The notes below the pieces were generated by a model, which was not told the DNA's origin, did no database searches, and saw only the letters and a list, made by a program, of their open reading frames with translations. The position numbers and the translations under genes were made by a program. Source: Nitrososphaera sp. (lineage in GTDB: Archaea; Thermoproteota; EX4484-205; JAAOZO01). From it: DNA of 64,000 nucleotides. Every line of letters begins with the position of its first letter. The stretch's first letter is position 1. The stretch spans positions 4,157 to 68,156 of the forward strand of contig JBAMLO010000049.1 of assembly GCA_039793485.1 (NCBI GenBank), written 5' to 3'. Below, piece by piece: positions 10,086 through 52,240 of this stretch.

Positions 10086-10820
10086 ATGAAAAAAGCAACT
10101 TTAGTTGTAATTGGCGGCAGTGGAACTTCGGACTTGTTTCCACTAGAAGAAAGCGAGGAAGTAAGTACTCCCTATGGAAAAAGTCTTGTTTATTGGGTGC
10201 GTGTTGCGGGCAGGGATGTGGCTTTTATCAGTAGGCATGGTCTAGCGCACAGTCTTCCTCCTCATAAGGTGAACTATAGGGCGAACATATACACTGCTAA
10301 GCAGTTAAGTGATAATGGTTATGTTGTAGCAACTAACGCCGTAGGGTCGTTGAACAAGAGAATGCGTCCCGGGGAGCTAGTTCTTGCAGATCAGGTTATA
10401 GATTTTACGAAGGGGCGAACTTACACCTTTTTTGATGGTGCTAATGGAAAAGTTGTTCATACTGACGTAACCTTTCCCTTTTCTAGTTTGCTTACTTCAA
10501 AGATACTAATGGCTTCTAAAAAATTGGGTCTAAGAATACACCCTAAGGGAACTTATGTTTGCACGGAAGGACCACGGTTTGAAACAGCTGCAGAAATAAA
10601 GATGTTCAAGAAAATTGGAGGCGATTTAGTTGGAATGACCTTAGTTCCAGAAGTTTTTCTTGCAAAAGAATTAAGTCTTGAGTATGCATCGATTTGCATT
10701 GTAACAAATTGGGCTGCTGGAATTGCAAAAAAAGTTTCTAGTGAAGAGGTTTTACAGGTAATGAAAAATCTTGCTCCAAAGTTAAAGTTGCTGTTAGAAG
10801 AAACCATAAAACTTATTTAA
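10086..10820 (+). CDS. mtnP: S-methyl-5'-thioadenosine phosphorylase / purine nucleoside phosphorylase family
   Basis: PNP/MTAP fold signatures: the VIGGSG N-terminus and the TNAVGSL and GMTLVPE motifs. It sits next to the MTA deaminase. Confidence 0.75.
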   Translation: MKKATLVVIGGSGTSDLFPLEESEEVSTPYGKSLVYWVRVAGRDVAFISRHGLAHSLPPHKVNYRANIYTAKQLSDNGYVVATNAVGSLNKRMRPGELVLADQVIDFTKGRTYTFFDGANGKVVHTDVTFPFSSLLTSKILMASKKLGLRIHPKGTYVCTEGPRFETAAEIKMFKKIGGDLVGMTLVPEVFLAKELSLEYASICIVTNWAAGIAKKVSSEEVLQVMKNLAPKLKLLLEETIKLI

Positions 10821-47470: not shown

Positions 47471-48046
47471 TTGTTTAAGATAATAAAACTAGAAGATACG
47501 TTGAGAGTTCCTCCAGAACTTTATGGTAGGTCTGTTAAAGATGCCATAAGGAGCTTACTCGAGGAAAAGTACGAGGGAATGGTCTTTGAAGACCTTGGCT
47601 TCGTTCTCTCTGTTCTAGACTTTTCATTCAACCCAAAAGGCAAAGTAATGCCCGGCGACGGCGGTTCTTACCATAAGGTTACATTTACCGTTCTATCTTT
47701 TATGCCAGAAGTTCAAGAGGTTACCTTAGGAAAAGTAACAGAAGTTGAAGAGTACGGTGCTTTCGTAAGAATTGGCCCATTTGAAGCTCTCCTGCACGTT
47801 AGTTCTATAGTCGACGACTTCGTTGATTTTAACAAGTCTCAGGGTATCTTAGTTGGCAGAAAGACAAGGCGAGTTCTTTCGAGTGGAGATTGGGTTAGAG
47901 TTAGGATAACCGCAGTAAGTATTGGAGGTGCTGGCGGCGATAAAATTGGAGTGATGAGCAGGCAGCCCTTCTTAGGAAAAGAAGAATGGATACAAGAAGA
48001 CATAAAGAAGCTGGCAGCAGAAGCTAAAGCAAGTGAGCAAAAATGA
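47471..48046 (+). CDS. rpo7: DNA-directed RNA polymerase subunit Rpo7 (E')
   Basis: N-terminal RNAP Rpb7-like domain plus an S1 domain. Followed by spt4. Confidence 0.85.
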   Translation: MFKIIKLEDTLRVPPELYGRSVKDAIRSLLEEKYEGMVFEDLGFVLSVLDFSFNPKGKVMPGDGGSYHKVTFTVLSFMPEVQEVTLGKVTEVEEYGAFVRIGPFEALLHVSSIVDDFVDFNKSQGILVGRKTRRVLSSGDWVRVRITAVSIGGAGGDKIGVMSRQPFLGKEEWIQEDIKKLAAEAKASEQK

Positions 48047-48866: not shown

Positions 48867-49001
48867 AAGATTTTTCTTTTTTGCTTAGAAACCAAGATGC
48901 AAAGGCTTTTAGTGCCTTAGCTCTGTGAGAATACTTGTTTTTCTCTTCGATGCTCATCTCAGCGAACGTGAGGTTTGAGCCTAAAGGCTTAAAGACGGGG
49001 T
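48867..49001. repeat. Left direct repeat (135 bp), a duplicated copy of the ham1 3' end (putative attL)
   Basis: 100 % identical to 51670..51804. Confidence 0.9.
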
Positions 49002-49666
49002 TTTCCTGTTTCAGAGATAGCAAGGTCTACTAGAACTTCGTCTTCAGTAACATCAATATCAGAGATTTCAAGCTTATCTACTTCCAGAGACAATTCATAA
49101 CCTAAAATACGCTTTGCCAGCTTCTTCTTGATCAACTTCTTCGATAAAGAGTAAACAAGTTTTACCATCTCATTAAAATTAAAATGGAAGGCCCCCACCC
49201 GCATTCTAATTCCATACTCAGGTTCAAGTTCAGAGAATAGATGCATGTCAGGAAAGACCAAAATTTTCCTTCCATTCATTAAAGCCTTCACTCGTGGATC
49301 TTTTTTAACTTTTTCGATGCACTTTCTTTCAAGAATCTTATACTGTTTTCTTACTTCATTAAGCTCTTTTAAATGTGTTTTGTTATTTTGAAATTCCTCC
49401 TCAGAGAGTTCCAATGTGATTTCATAAACTTTGTTTTTCTCCCTTAGAACTAGATTAAGCAAGCGGTCTACTAAGATTCCAATGCTTTCTCGATCTCTAG
49501 TGTATGCATCGATACCAAAAAGTATATCCTTACTTCTACTCTTCCCAACTAAAGTTATGCGACATTCCTTGGTTGTTACTTTCCAAAACTTCTTAGCGCA
49601 AATTTCGCTATTGGTTTTCGCAGATTTGTAGTCGTCGCCCCACCCCCAAATAGTAATTTTTTTCAT
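48989..49666 (-). CDS. Hypothetical protein (island cargo)
   Basis: 225-aa ORF. Its last 13 nt run into the left direct repeat in a frame different from ham1. No recognisable motif. Confidence 0.4.
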
Positions 49667-50577
49667 TCTTCTTTCCTCTTTTTTATTCTCCCTCTTCTTA
49701 CCTTTCCTTCCTTATATGCTTTTAGAAACCTTTTGAACCTTTCTATATGTGAAGGTTTACAACTTCCTATCTCCTCAATGAATCTCATTTGCTCTTTTGA
49801 GTATATCTCTAAGTAATGTGCATCGTAAGTTCTATCAGTGCGAACCTCAGAAGGATTAAAGCCTAGTCTTACTAATGCTTCTCTGACCTCCTCTAAGCAA
49901 TCTTTGTATTTTGACGATATCCGAAGTTTAATAGCATACTTCCCATGCTTTGCAACGCTCCCATCCCCTGAGAAAAAACCCCTTAAGTACGCTCTCAATC
50001 CTTCTTTATCTAGATGCTCTAAAGGAACATGATACCTATATGGTCCAGTCTTAGCACCTATTTCTTTTAAGTCATAATATGCTTCCTTGTTAGCTATTCC
50101 TGCTATAAGTTCACCTTTACCTTTGTAGATATTTGGCACCTTCCCGTAAACTTTCTCAAACAGTTCATTAAACCTTTTAATAAGTTCAATGTCAGCAGAG
50201 TGAAAGAAAATTCTGTAATGACCTCTTTGAGAAGGTAAACTTCCTTCAGAAGCTATAAGGCCGCATAATTCTGCTTTTTCAGGAATAAAAATTTCTTTTA
50301 TTCCATCTTTCGATACCTCTAGCATTACTCCAAGGCCCAAAGGGAACAAAATTCTATCTTCTTCCATCTTCGCCTTTGAAAATGTAGCTATAACGGTGTC
50401 TCCTCTTACTAATTTGTACTCTTCGCTTTCTGTTATACTTACTTTATACTCACCAAACTCTATTGTTTGTTGGCTTGATTGCTCACAAGATTTCCATCCT
50501 TCTTTATTTTCTGTAGAAACATGCTCCCCTTCGTGAAATCTTAGTTGGTGCTGTCTTATCAGCGAAGCTTCTCCCAT
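49663..50577 (-). CDS. LAGLIDADG-type homing-endonuclease-like protein, two-motif form
   Basis: Two LAGLIDADG-like motifs about 95 aa apart: LCGLIASEGSL and YLRGFFSGDGSV. The basic C-terminal tail is [13 protein letters not shown]. Confidence 0.55.
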   Translation of the reverse strand: MGEASLIRQHQLRFHEGEHVSTENKEGWKSCEQSSQQTIEFGEYKVSITESEEYKLVRGDTVIATFSKAKMEEDRILFPLGLGVMLEVSKDGIKEIFIPEKAELCGLIASEGSLPSQRGHYRIFFHSADIELIKRFNELFEKVYGKVPNIYKGKGELIAGIANKEAYYDLKEIGAKTGPYRYHVPLEHLDKEGLRAYLRGFFSGDGSVAKHGKYAIKLRISSKYKDCLEEVREALVRLGFNPSEVRTDRTYDAHYLEIYSKEQMRFIEEIGSCKPSHIERFKRFLKAYKEGKVRRGRIKKRKEE

Positions 50578-50578
50578 T

Positions 50579-51661
50579 TCATGTATTTCGCTTCCAATCT
50601 AATAAGTTGTGAATAGCTAATATCCTTTTACAGGATTCTAGATCTTTGATCCATAGATCGATTAAATCCTGTGGTGTCATACCTCTACAGGCATCGCAGT
50701 AACATTCCTTAAATCTTATTCTTTCATCTCTCATATCATATAATTTACAATTTCTGAAATAAAGCCCATGTTTAGCTTCAAGAAACCACGAAAAATTGCT
50801 ATAACTTATTCTACTATATTTGAGCTTTCTTCCAACTCCGTAAACAAGCATTTCAAAATTTTTGTTGTTAGTTTTGCCTAACTTCTTTAACATGCTCAAT
50901 ACATATGGAAGAACGTCATTTAACAAACCTTGCTCAAAAAGTTCTCTAGAGGGCATGACAAAGGAAACATAGCCCATCTCTATCTCTTTTTTAAGAGACC
51001 AATATATTTGACGTAAGTTTGCTCCCTTAATTAAACCAATTAATGGAATGTCAAGACAAAGAAACTCGTTTGCAAGTTGTACTAATCGTATTGTTTGCGA
51101 CCAAGATTGATATAATGGTGCATCAGTGTATGTATAGTTGTCCGGTATCATTGTAGCATCTGGTTTTAGGTCTTCAATTAGCTTGAGGTAGTCATCTATT
51201 TTTAGCTTATCAATAAGTTCATCTGGCATAACTGTGGATAGTAATATTTTTCCATTAAATTCAAGGAAGTCATGAAGACTTTTGCTTAAAGCCTTTAGTA
51301 GCAGATCTTTATGGAGAATCAACTGCCAAAGTGGAACAAATATAGCGGATGTCTCTACCTCCTCTTTCCAGAACCACGAGCTCTGGTCTGTTACATCAAC
51401 TTGAGGTATAAAAGTCGAAAAGTTGACTTTTAACATGCTTTTCTTTTTAAGAGGCGGAAGTAAGAGGGGAGGAGGCTTGCTCTTTCCTCCAATTGGACAG
51501 TACTCTCTTAGTTTGCAGAACGACTTGGGATAAGTTATGCCTGTAAAGGAATGTCCCTTAATGCATAGATCTACAAGACAACTTTCAATTACACAACCAG
51601 GACATAGTTTTCTATAGTAGTAGCATTCTTCACAAAGTATTCCACATTTACTTTTTTTCAT
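50579..51661 (-). CDS. tRNA-guanine-transglycosylase-superfamily protein (TGT/DpdA-like) with an N-terminal Cys-rich extension
   Basis: The C-terminal CYCDAC followed 25 residues later by H (AIHNL) equals the TGT zinc signature C-x-C-x2-C-x25-H (E. coli CDCYTC...TIHNL). The N-terminus contains CGILCEECYYY, a CxxxCxxC-aromatic arrangement, plus four more cysteines. Confidence 0.5.
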   Translation of the reverse strand: MKKSKCGILCEECYYYRKLCPGCVIESCLVDLCIKGHSFTGITYPKSFCKLREYCPIGGKSKPPPLLLPPLKKKSMLKVNFSTFIPQVDVTDQSSWFWKEEVETSAIFVPLWQLILHKDLLLKALSKSLHDFLEFNGKILLSTVMPDELIDKLKIDDYLKLIEDLKPDATMIPDNYTYTDAPLYQSWSQTIRLVQLANEFLCLDIPLIGLIKGANLRQIYWSLKKEIEMGYVSFVMPSRELFEQGLLNDVLPYVLSMLKKLGKTNNKNFEMLVYGVGRKLKYSRISYSNFSWFLEAKHGLYFRNCKLYDMRDERIRFKECYCDACRGMTPQDLIDLWIKDLESCKRILAIHNLLDWKRNT

Positions 51662-51667
51662 TTCTGC

Positions 51668-52240
51668 TCAAGATTTTTCTTTTTTGCTTAGAAACCAAGA
51701 TGCAAAGGCTTTTAGTGCCTTAGCTCTGTGAGAATACTTGTTTTTCTCTTCGATGCTCATCTCAGCGAACGTGAGGTTTGAGCCTAAAGGCTTAAAGACG
51801 GGGTCAAATCCGAAGCCGCTTTTTCCTCGGGCTTCAGTTGTTATTACTCCATCTACTCTTCCACTAAAGATCTTTAGTTCACCTCCTGGTTCGCCGTAGG
51901 CTAAAGCTGTCATAAAGTAAGCCGACCTATCTGTTGAGCCAGAGAGCAATTTAAGTATGCCTTCATAACCAATTGTTCTATAAACGTATGACGAGTATAC
52001 ACCTGGAAAGCCATTCAAAGATTTTATAAAAAGACCGGAGTCGTCGATGATGAAGTTTCCCTTAACAATCTTTAAAGCGTCCTCAGCACACTTCCTAACA
52101 ACTTCTTCTAAGCTGTCTGACTGAGGCTCGGTTATGTCAAGGTCAACCTGCTCAAGTTCAATTCCAAAGTCCTTAAGCAATTTTTGTGCTTCAAGGAACT
52201 TTCCACGGTTGCTAGTTATGAAGATAAGTTTAGCCTTCAT
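51668..52240 (-). CDS. ham1: Non-canonical purine NTP pyrophosphatase (Ham1/ITPase/RdgB family)
   Basis: N-terminal FITSNRGK and central FGFDPVF are hallmark Ham1 motifs. Confidence 0.85.
   Translation of the reverse strand: MKAKLIFITSNRGKFLEAQKLLKDFGIELEQVDLDITEPQSDSLEEVVRKCAEDALKIVKGNFIIDDSGLFIKSLNGFPGVYSSYVYRTIGYEGILKLLSGSTDRSAYFMTALAYGEPGGELKIFSGRVDGVITTEARGKSGFGFDPVFKPLGSNLTFAEMSIEEKNKYSHRAKALKAFASWFLSKKEKS
51670..51804. repeat. Right direct repeat (135 bp), the native 3' end of ham1 (putative attR)
   Basis: 100 % identical to 48867..49001. Its reverse complement encodes the ham1 C-terminus ...[42 protein letters not shown]. Confidence 0.9.

Follow-up and report, generated by a model that had tools for sequence, protein, structure and literature searches.

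Which kind of genetic unit carries a LAGLIDADG endonuclease gene that lies in neither an intron nor an intein, and how did this unit reach its place on the chromosome? The question was raised by a stretch of 64,000 nucleotides (the window) from the assembly GCA_039793485.1 of Nitrososphaera sp. (contig JBAMLO010000049.1, positions 4,157 to 68,156 of the forward strand), in which such a gene directly follows a gene for a protein resembling TGT enzymes. Both genes were found to be part of a discrete, multicopy and site-specific three-gene element, which encodes proteins under purifying selection and is polymorphic. The best reading is that the nuclease is the signature gene of a compact selfish mobile element without a recognisable integrase.

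In the window, the genes for the TGT-fold protein, the LAGLIDADG nuclease and a third protein (ORF3) follow each other in this order, and all of them are located between two direct repeats of 135 nt (Table 1). The element comprises 2,803 bp including one repeat copy. A preliminary description of the locus, made from the sequence alone, had regarded the nuclease and TGT-like genes as a two-gene unit; ORF3 and the perfect flanking repeat had been overlooked, and the unit is in fact a discrete element of about 2.8 kb with three genes. The repeat copies A and B are 100% identical, are spaced by 2,803 nt, and represent the sole repeat of at least 40 nt within the 64-kb window. The identity in copy A ends at the T of the TGA stop codon of Ham1, 8 nt ahead of the ATG of the TGT-fold gene. 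Copy B comes after ORF3, contains the ORF3 stop codon, and is followed by a TAG stop codon and the unrelated flank TAGATAGAG. Since the last 135 nt of Ham1 stand on both sides of the element, the Ham1 gene stays intact.

The spacing of the three genes is tight. The start codon of the nuclease gene lies 1 nt past the TGA of the upstream 360-aa gene, as stated in the preliminary description, and the ATG of ORF3 overlaps the nuclease stop codon by 4 nt (ATGA). From this spacing, the co-transcription of the nuclease gene with the TGT-like gene that had been proposed is plausible. Searches with the three proteins against Pfam, NCBIfam, PHROGs and PADLOC revealed no tyrosine or serine recombinase, integrase or transposase domain. 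No tRNA gene was detected in the window.

Table 1. Features of the element and of its insertion site in the window, and states of the Ham1 site at individual loci (L numbers).
Feature	Position or loci	Strand	Remarks
Ham1/ITPase gene, target	51668..52240	(-)	190 aa; Pfam Ham1p_like, E=2.7e-52
Direct repeat, copy A	51670..51804	(-)	135 nt; encodes the C-terminus of Ham1
TGT-fold gene	50579..51661	(-)	360 aa; Cys-rich N-terminal ~75 aa, then predicted TIM barrel with CxCxxC...H zinc motif
LAGLIDADG endonuclease gene	49663..50577	(-)	304 aa, intact; N-terminal domain (1-95), I-DmoI-like double-motif core, basic tail
LAGLIDADG motif 1, LCGLIASEGSL	50236..50268	(-)	residues 104-114, acidic E111
LAGLIDADG motif 2, YLRGFFSGDGSV	49954..49989	(-)	residues 197-208, acidic D205
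ORF3, third gene of the element	48989..49666	(-)	225 aa; last 13 nt inside repeat copy B
Direct repeat, copy B	48867..49001	(-)	135 nt; displaced non-functional 3' end of Ham1 (tblastn, Ham1 residues 146-190)
Predicted circle junction			ORF3 end, repeat, GAGCAGAAATG
Predicted empty site			Ham1, repeat, TAGATAGAG
Full elements at Ham1	L049, L055, L057, L058, L002, L007, L008, L027		
Internal deletion at Ham1	L048, L051-L054		Ham1, ~8 TGT codons, final 45 codons of the nuclease gene, followed by ORF3
Scar at Ham1	L045, L046, L050		Ham1 and a degraded ~105-nt fragment of the TGT-like gene 5' end
No trace of the element at Ham1	L056, L059		apparently never occupied

Related loci and states of the insertion sites

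A scan of species-representative genomes yielded 35 related loci in Brockarchaeota and Thermoproteota assemblies, with five to seven copies per genome in several of these assemblies. The order TGT-like gene, LAGLIDADG gene, ORF3 was retained in nearly all of the approximately 35 loci; in one subfamily, ORF3 is inverted and located upstream. About one third of the copies are frameshifted or truncated. Most copies adjoin a tRNA gene (Ala, Leu, Glu, Thr, Arg, Met, and others), the 3' end of which faces the element. All three proteins cluster by target, with a separate clade for each target; this divergence is strongest in ORF3 (12 clusters), intermediate in the nuclease (6) and weakest in the TGT-like protein (2). 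A search of IMG/VR for viral carriage gave no close relative.

Flanking direct repeats of 30-135 nt, spaced by 2,650-2,940 nt, were found at about 16 loci, i.e. at about half of the complete copies. The repeats of L009, L014, L017, L023, L030 and L032 contain 23-64 nt of a tRNA 3' end. The repeats differ in what they are made of. In the window and at L055, they consist of target sequence only. Mixed repeats at L014 and L030 combine the last ~20 nt of ORF3 with the 3' part of the tRNA gene, and the upstream copy still encodes the conserved ORF3 C-terminus. Repeats made of element sequence only correspond to the 3' end of the nuclease gene (L005 subfamily) or to the 5' end of the TGT-like gene (L007 and L008). 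As far as the sequences indicate, every repeat type reads as one unit length plus a terminal redundancy of 33-135 nt, the start point on a circular map differing from case to case. Repeat copies of the L005 subfamily share 0.91-0.98 identity within a genome and orthologous copies of different genomes share 0.83-0.90, one close genome pair being the sole exception. By this closer similarity, the repeats show concerted evolution within genomes, and continuing exchange or re-insertion is indicated.

Several individual loci deserve mention. In L005:5385-6090 (also in L024, L026 and L036, all of the subfamily in which ORF3 is inverted), the upstream repeat corresponds to the last 58 nt of the nuclease gene. 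In another reading frame, it makes up the final 16 codons of a gene for a class I methyltransferase; as the repeat supplies these codons, the C-terminus of the host methyltransferase was apparently rewritten by the insertion. Two diverged element copies, L012 and L019, are located within ~7.5 kb of each other on the Brockarchaeota contig JAFNIX010000002.1, L019 beside a tRNA-Arg(CCG) gene. At tRNA-Met(CAT), the copies L039, L040 and L041 are all heavily decayed, with fragmented nuclease and TGT-like genes, which suggests an old lineage dying out at this target. A solitary 5' fragment of the TGT-like gene (residues 1-48; L030:10792-10934) lies ~180 nt from a tRNA-Val gene (10537-10610) and looks like the scar of a lost element; the scars at Ham1 keep the same part of the gene. 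The contigs L127 and L128 (2.8 kb), each with one and the same tRNA fragment at its beginning and its end (25 and 21 nt, respectively), were considered as a possible free circular form; they are indistinguishable from a repeat-flanked integrated copy broken at the repeat and hence uninformative on this point. L001 likewise terminates inside the repeat.

The states of the Ham1 site were compiled from a metagenome scan with the Ham1 protein and from the loci of the prior element scans (Table 1). Insertion, decay and loss of the element have all occurred. Among the internally deleted loci, L048 and L052 have a complete ORF3 and L053 and L054 a truncated one; in L051, ORF3 is cut by the contig end. 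The scarred loci L045 and L046 are the closest relatives of the window: Ham1 and its upstream synteny (Bud32, Kae1) are common to them and the window at 89% nucleotide identity. At L007, L008 and L055, the 5' fragment of the TGT-like gene is repeated after ORF3 and ends at the same position as the scars. Because these end positions coincide, the scars look like products of recombination between such repeats.

The occupied sites L055, L057 and L058 show transfer into a host with 60-65% GC. Here, an AT-rich segment of 4.1 kb comprises a donor-type Ham1 gene and the trio. The 57-nt repeats on either side of this segment are those of the resident Ham1 3' end; they share 95% identity with each other and only 67% with the donor copy. 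This is a true duplication of recipient sequence, and such a product does not arise from conservative att recombination. In the same regions (L055:1-4435, L057:1-4892, L058:1-3474), the resident Ham1 is a pseudogene, residues ~85-164 being missing from the left copy. The AT-rich donor Ham1 that arrived with the element appears to replace it functionally.

Two further observations concern the Ham1 3' end. In a distant lineage (L100:4946-6527; Ham1 49% identical), a different insertion of 1.46 kb, which codes for a 375-aa protein, likewise has a duplication of the Ham1 3' end at its flanks (121 nt, 75% identical). In this protein, an apparent helix-turn-helix region followed by membrane segments can be read from the sequence. 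The Ham1 3' end seems to be a recurrent insertion hot spot. In L045:3100-6490, synteny with the window ends exactly at the Ham1 3' end; the unrelated small genes beyond it, among them genes for a zinc-ribbon protein and a 245-aa coiled-coil-like protein, may be part of another inserted element.

The three proteins of the element

As judged from motifs and profile matches, the nuclease of the window is a free-standing double-motif LAGLIDADG protein closest to I-DmoI, and the preliminary description was borne out in this respect. Motif 2 begins 93 residues beyond motif 1, and the basic tail comprises residues 289-304 (16 residues). The profile search that had been suggested matched Pfam LAGLIDADG_3 in two stretches (E=5.1e-19, 68.7 bits versus a cut-off of 22.5). 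The best solved relative was I-DmoI, which was matched by a profile of 40 homologues over nuclease residues 98-285 (E=2.8e-8); the profile covers I-DmoI residues 11-181, i.e. the similarity extends across the whole core. Matches in NCBIfam corresponded to the endonuclease part of inteins from archaeal RFC, RNA polymerase A'' and PolII, and the protein was labelled as homing endonuclease or endonuclease by both PADLOC and PHROGs. The acidic residues of both motifs are conserved among the 40 homologues, a check that had been proposed with the earlier assignment: the motif-1 column holds E in the window nuclease and D in more than 90% of the homologues, and D205 of motif 2 is invariant.

An intein as carrier of the nuclease was rejected, since the Pfam scan revealed no Hint or intein domain. 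An intron was rejected as well, since no Rfam intron or other RNA family was detected between positions 48000 and 53000 (E up to 1). The nuclease gene begins with a start codon of its own, and the first 95 residues of the protein are conserved in the alignment of the 40 homologues. Because the homologues align from Met1-Gly2 onward, the gene is a free-standing open reading frame, in agreement with the earlier statement that it lies in neither an intron nor an intein. Nuclease homologues formed 66 clusters from Thermoproteota and Brockarchaeota assemblies and were located on contigs in common with homologues of the TGT-like protein (115 clusters, same groups). The window copy is saturated at synonymous sites in comparison to its relatives, and closer pairs alone were informative for dN/dS. 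Unsaturated orthologue pairs gave values of 0.09-0.17, which argue for a functional protein, no more than that. The nuclease is probably active.

By its modelled fold, the 360-aa protein belongs to the TGT superfamily; base exchange is a putative function. The AlphaFold model (pLDDT 85), in which the Cys-rich N-terminus of ~75 aa was not resolved, gave archaeosine TGT 1iq8 as best Foldseek match (E=3e-12, TM 0.65), followed by about 190 further TGT entries, the bacterial TGT being next after 1iq8. The same structure was matched by the family profile in a search against the PDB (E=3.7e-7). Profile and structure comparison thus both support the TGT-like neighbour named in the preliminary description, and its pairing with the nuclease recurs in nearly all related loci. 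The zinc site is well preserved: C320 is invariant, C322, C325 and H351 are at least 90% conserved, and all four residues align with the CxCxxC...H segment of 1iq8. A block with the consensus PDATMxPDNYTYxDDP aligns with the D124/D130/D136 segment of 1iq8. Five aspartates, D147, D151, D168, D174 and D180, are invariant in the family, the last three of them within this block.

Other features of the protein depart from the known enzymes. The window protein scored 18.7 bits with PF01702, under the Pfam cut-off of 26.3, and PF01702 was matched by 16 of 33 relatives (E up to 0.01; best 1.6e-6). The match to the TGT model of PADLOC was weak (E=1.1e-3 over 80 residues). In an HMM alignment (19% identity, beside gaps), D95 and D249 of archaeosine TGT, which we take to be the catalytic aspartates, correspond to the invariant S142 and the variable S288. 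Because of these serines and the score under the cut-off, the name TGT-fold protein is used here rather than TGT. With these serines, the low Pfam score and the weak PADLOC match, the restriction-like, modification-linked option that had been proposed for this locus lacks support; the homing-like option of that proposal fits the site-specific insertions, the presence/absence polymorphism and the decayed copies. Membership in a DpdA/Dpd defence system was rejected, based on the weak PADLOC match and the absent dpd/preQ0 gene context. No preQ0 or Dpd genes were found nearby in the window, where the neighbours are Ham1, Bud32, Kae1 and transcription genes.

ORF3 was found in nearly all related loci, and its dN/dS values range from 0.10 to 0.29. 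Neither alone nor across 16 members did it give a match in Pfam, NCBIfam, PADLOC or PHROGs. A profile search against the PDB gave just a chance match to Cmr3 (E=0.43), and a Foldseek search of the poor AlphaFold model (pLDDT 64) against the PDB gave nothing under E=0.2. An exhaustive profile search among 1.8 billion proteins retrieved 67 family representatives, all of them 232 aa or shorter and none of them fused to other domains. Tyr190 and Ser93 are nearly invariant. In terms of these searches, ORF3 is a family without detectable relatives outside itself.

Proposed insertion mechanism and rival explanations

We give slightly better than an even chance to a mechanism in which the targeting break comes from the nuclease, slightly more than one unit is inserted by repair synthesis with a circular or tandem donor, and recombination between the repeats excises the element. 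The activity and target of the nuclease, the copying mechanism and the roles of the TGT-fold protein and ORF3 are inferred as follows. The nuclease would make a site-specific break in the conserved 3' end of an unoccupied tRNA or Ham1 target. Host recombination and repair synthesis would then copy the element in from a donor carrying the target patch, which is probably circular or tandem. Copying a little over one unit length would create long flanking repeats of variable extent, and recombination between them would excise the element and leave scars. The TGT-fold protein and ORF3 would act as accessory proteins, with possible functions in site protection or immunity, DNA binding and target choice.

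A more far-reaching proposal, which is tentative and on balance improbable, is that of a new class of archaeal mobile elements with site-specific integration in the absence of an integrase or transposase. The nuclease, perhaps together with the TGT-fold protein flipping out or excising a base on the other strand, would open a tRNA or housekeeping gene at its conserved 3' end. The circular element would be copied in by target-primed or synthesis-dependent repair, and copying of slightly more than one turn would give rise to the terminal duplications.

Several points weigh against nuclease-driven copying. Any target located within the repeat persists in one or both repeat copies once the element is inserted, so that some further factor must prevent re-cutting. 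ORF3, with its poor fold model, could be a new recombinase. Repeats extending over the 3' ends of tRNA genes are classically a mark of att recombination by integrases. The contigs of ~2.8 kb are explained by repeat-flanked integrated copies as well as by a putative free circle. All related copies seen in different genomes are at orthologous sites; recent transposition is therefore inferred from repeat identity and polymorphism and was not observed. Finally, the perfect 135-nt repeat in the window could in principle be an assembly mis-join of a circle plus an empty site. Several other assemblies, however, contain the Ham1-TGT junction independently, and the element would be the same in either state.

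The first of three rival explanations, an unlikely one, is a conventional integrative element in which ORF3 or the TGT-fold protein is a hidden site-specific recombinase, acting on attP and an attB in the 3' ends of tRNA or Ham1 genes. The attP site would be located between ORF3 and the TGT-like gene, and the nuclease would serve maintenance only, e.g. by killing or re-converting cells that lose the element. In favour of this view, the repeats extend over tRNA 3' ends and reconstitute the target gene, which is also the case in tyrosine-integrase elements. One candidate is ORF3, which is strictly linked to the element, under purifying selection and the most divergent with the target, and combines a fold that is not assigned with nearly invariant Tyr and Ser residues; however, it showed no similarity to any recombinase by sequence or profile (Pfam, NCBIfam, PHROGs, PADLOC, PDB). 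The repeats themselves provide two further arguments against a hidden recombinase. Both outer repeats at L055 are of the resident type and represent a true duplication, which is foreign to conservative recombination, and many repeats consist of element-terminal sequence (nuclease 3' end, TGT-like 5' end, ORF3 3' end) and not of target sequence.

Quite unlikely, in our estimate, is a mobile restriction-modification (R-M)-like or addiction module. In such a module, a base (e.g. a 7-deazaguanine) at the recognition site of the nuclease in host DNA would be exchanged by the TGT-fold enzyme, and unmodified sites would be cut by the nuclease. It would spread by 'insertion with long target duplication', as reported for bacterial R-M units, and the long (>30 bp), variable target duplications are as in Furuta et al. 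2010 (PMC2853133). It would account for the pairing of a nuclease with a member of a base-exchanging superfamily in the absence of any other mobility gene, and for the escape of the repeat copies from re-cutting. The TGT-fold protein gives a divided picture: the zinc motif is kept and the invariant D168/D174/D180 align to the D124/D130/D136 segment, but the presumed catalytic positions align with serines, the score is under the Pfam cut-off, the PADLOC match has an E-value of just 1e-3, and preQ0 or Dpd genes are not found nearby. Moreover, LAGLIDADG enzymes recognise long, rare sites and are for this reason poor general restriction enzymes. A domesticated, immobile host operon for tRNA or nucleotide metabolism, with the repeat as a chance local duplication, is very improbable and is largely refuted by the polymorphism. 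The Ham1-TGT junction common to several diverged genomes, purifying selection on the genes and the tight, operon-like spacing with Ham1 would suit an operon. They are outweighed by five to seven paralogous copies per genome at different tRNA genes, partial tRNA duplications in the flanks, frequent frameshifted copies, scars and empty sites in close relatives, and transfer into a GC-rich host.

Comparison with known systems

The nuclease resembles I-DmoI and other archaeal monomeric LAGLIDADG enzymes, which likewise are single chains with two motifs ~95 residues apart, each with a terminal acidic residue. It differs from this type by its location outside of an rRNA intron or intein, by an additional conserved N-terminal part of ~95 aa and a basic tail, and by its constant linkage to two other genes. 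Furthermore, the target is not split, and 23-135 nt of it are duplicated. The TGT-fold protein shares the TIM-barrel fold, the CxCxxC...H zinc motif and the 'PDxxxxxD' segment with archaeosine TGT and the DNA-modifying DpdA. The C-terminal tRNA-binding domains of archaeosine TGT are missing from it, its Cys-rich N-terminus is unique, the positions aligned with the two catalytic aspartates are Ser, and it stands outside any dpd or preQ0 gene context.

Free-standing homing endonuclease genes are known from T4-like phages (Seg and Mob), where SegB acts in a tRNA gene cluster. These genes are likewise located between host genes, show presence/absence polymorphism, and have targets in or near conserved genes including tRNA genes. 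They are single-gene cassettes of the GIY-YIG or HNH type, which spread by co-conversion between co-infecting phages and have no flanking repeats, whereas the element described here has three genes and long direct repeats, resides on cellular chromosomes and occurs in multiple diverged lineages per genome.

Tyrosine-integrase elements target tRNA genes, and the partial tRNA duplication restores the gene. Insertion at the tRNA 3' end, the gene-restoring partial duplication and repeats of tens of nucleotides are shared by the element family. At just ~2.8 kb and with three genes, it carries no known integrase family; its repeats are often element-terminal, and in one case both repeat copies are derived from the recipient. 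Integration at tRNA 3' ends with restoring repeats is regarded as a hallmark of integrases, and the family shows this hallmark with no more than a homing-type nuclease, an orphan protein and a diverged protein of TGT fold. Should insertion be driven by the nuclease, homing endonucleases would be linked to integrative elements. The family also provides a collection of natural LAGLIDADG enzymes, which are apparently adapted to different tRNA or Ham1 sequences and are each accompanied by a fixed pair of partner proteins. The use of tRNA 3' ends as phage and plasmid targets has been reviewed (Furuta 2010, PMC2853133).

Searches of the accessible literature revealed no description of an element combining TGT and LAGLIDADG proteins, and the only useful analogue was the study of Furuta, Abe and Kobayashi 2010 (PMC2853133). 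It describes R-M units that were inserted with a variable target duplication of >30 bp, without transposase or integrase and often overlapping the 3' end of a gene. This 'insertion with long target duplication' was described for R-M systems between 2000 and 2010, and its mechanism was left open in the 2010 study (PMC2853133). If the nuclease drives insertion, the three-gene element of 2.8 kb would be a tractable model for the process; if the circle-copying proposal without an integrase were true, it would supply a mechanism for the bacterial R-M units. Both kinds of unit are nuclease cassettes without a mobility gene, with repeats of 30-135 nt in the present family and of 57 nt and resident type at L055. 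The R-M units are bacterial Type I-IV systems with methyltransferases, and the element combines a LAGLIDADG nuclease with a TGT-fold partner of putative activity. Its insertions are, in contrast to those of R-M units, strongly site-specific, with target-specific lineages. By its footprint the element recalls the tRNA-targeting integrative elements, by its enzyme the free-standing homing genes of phages, and by duplications of >30 bp in the absence of a mobility gene the R-M units with long target duplications; it belongs to none of these groups.

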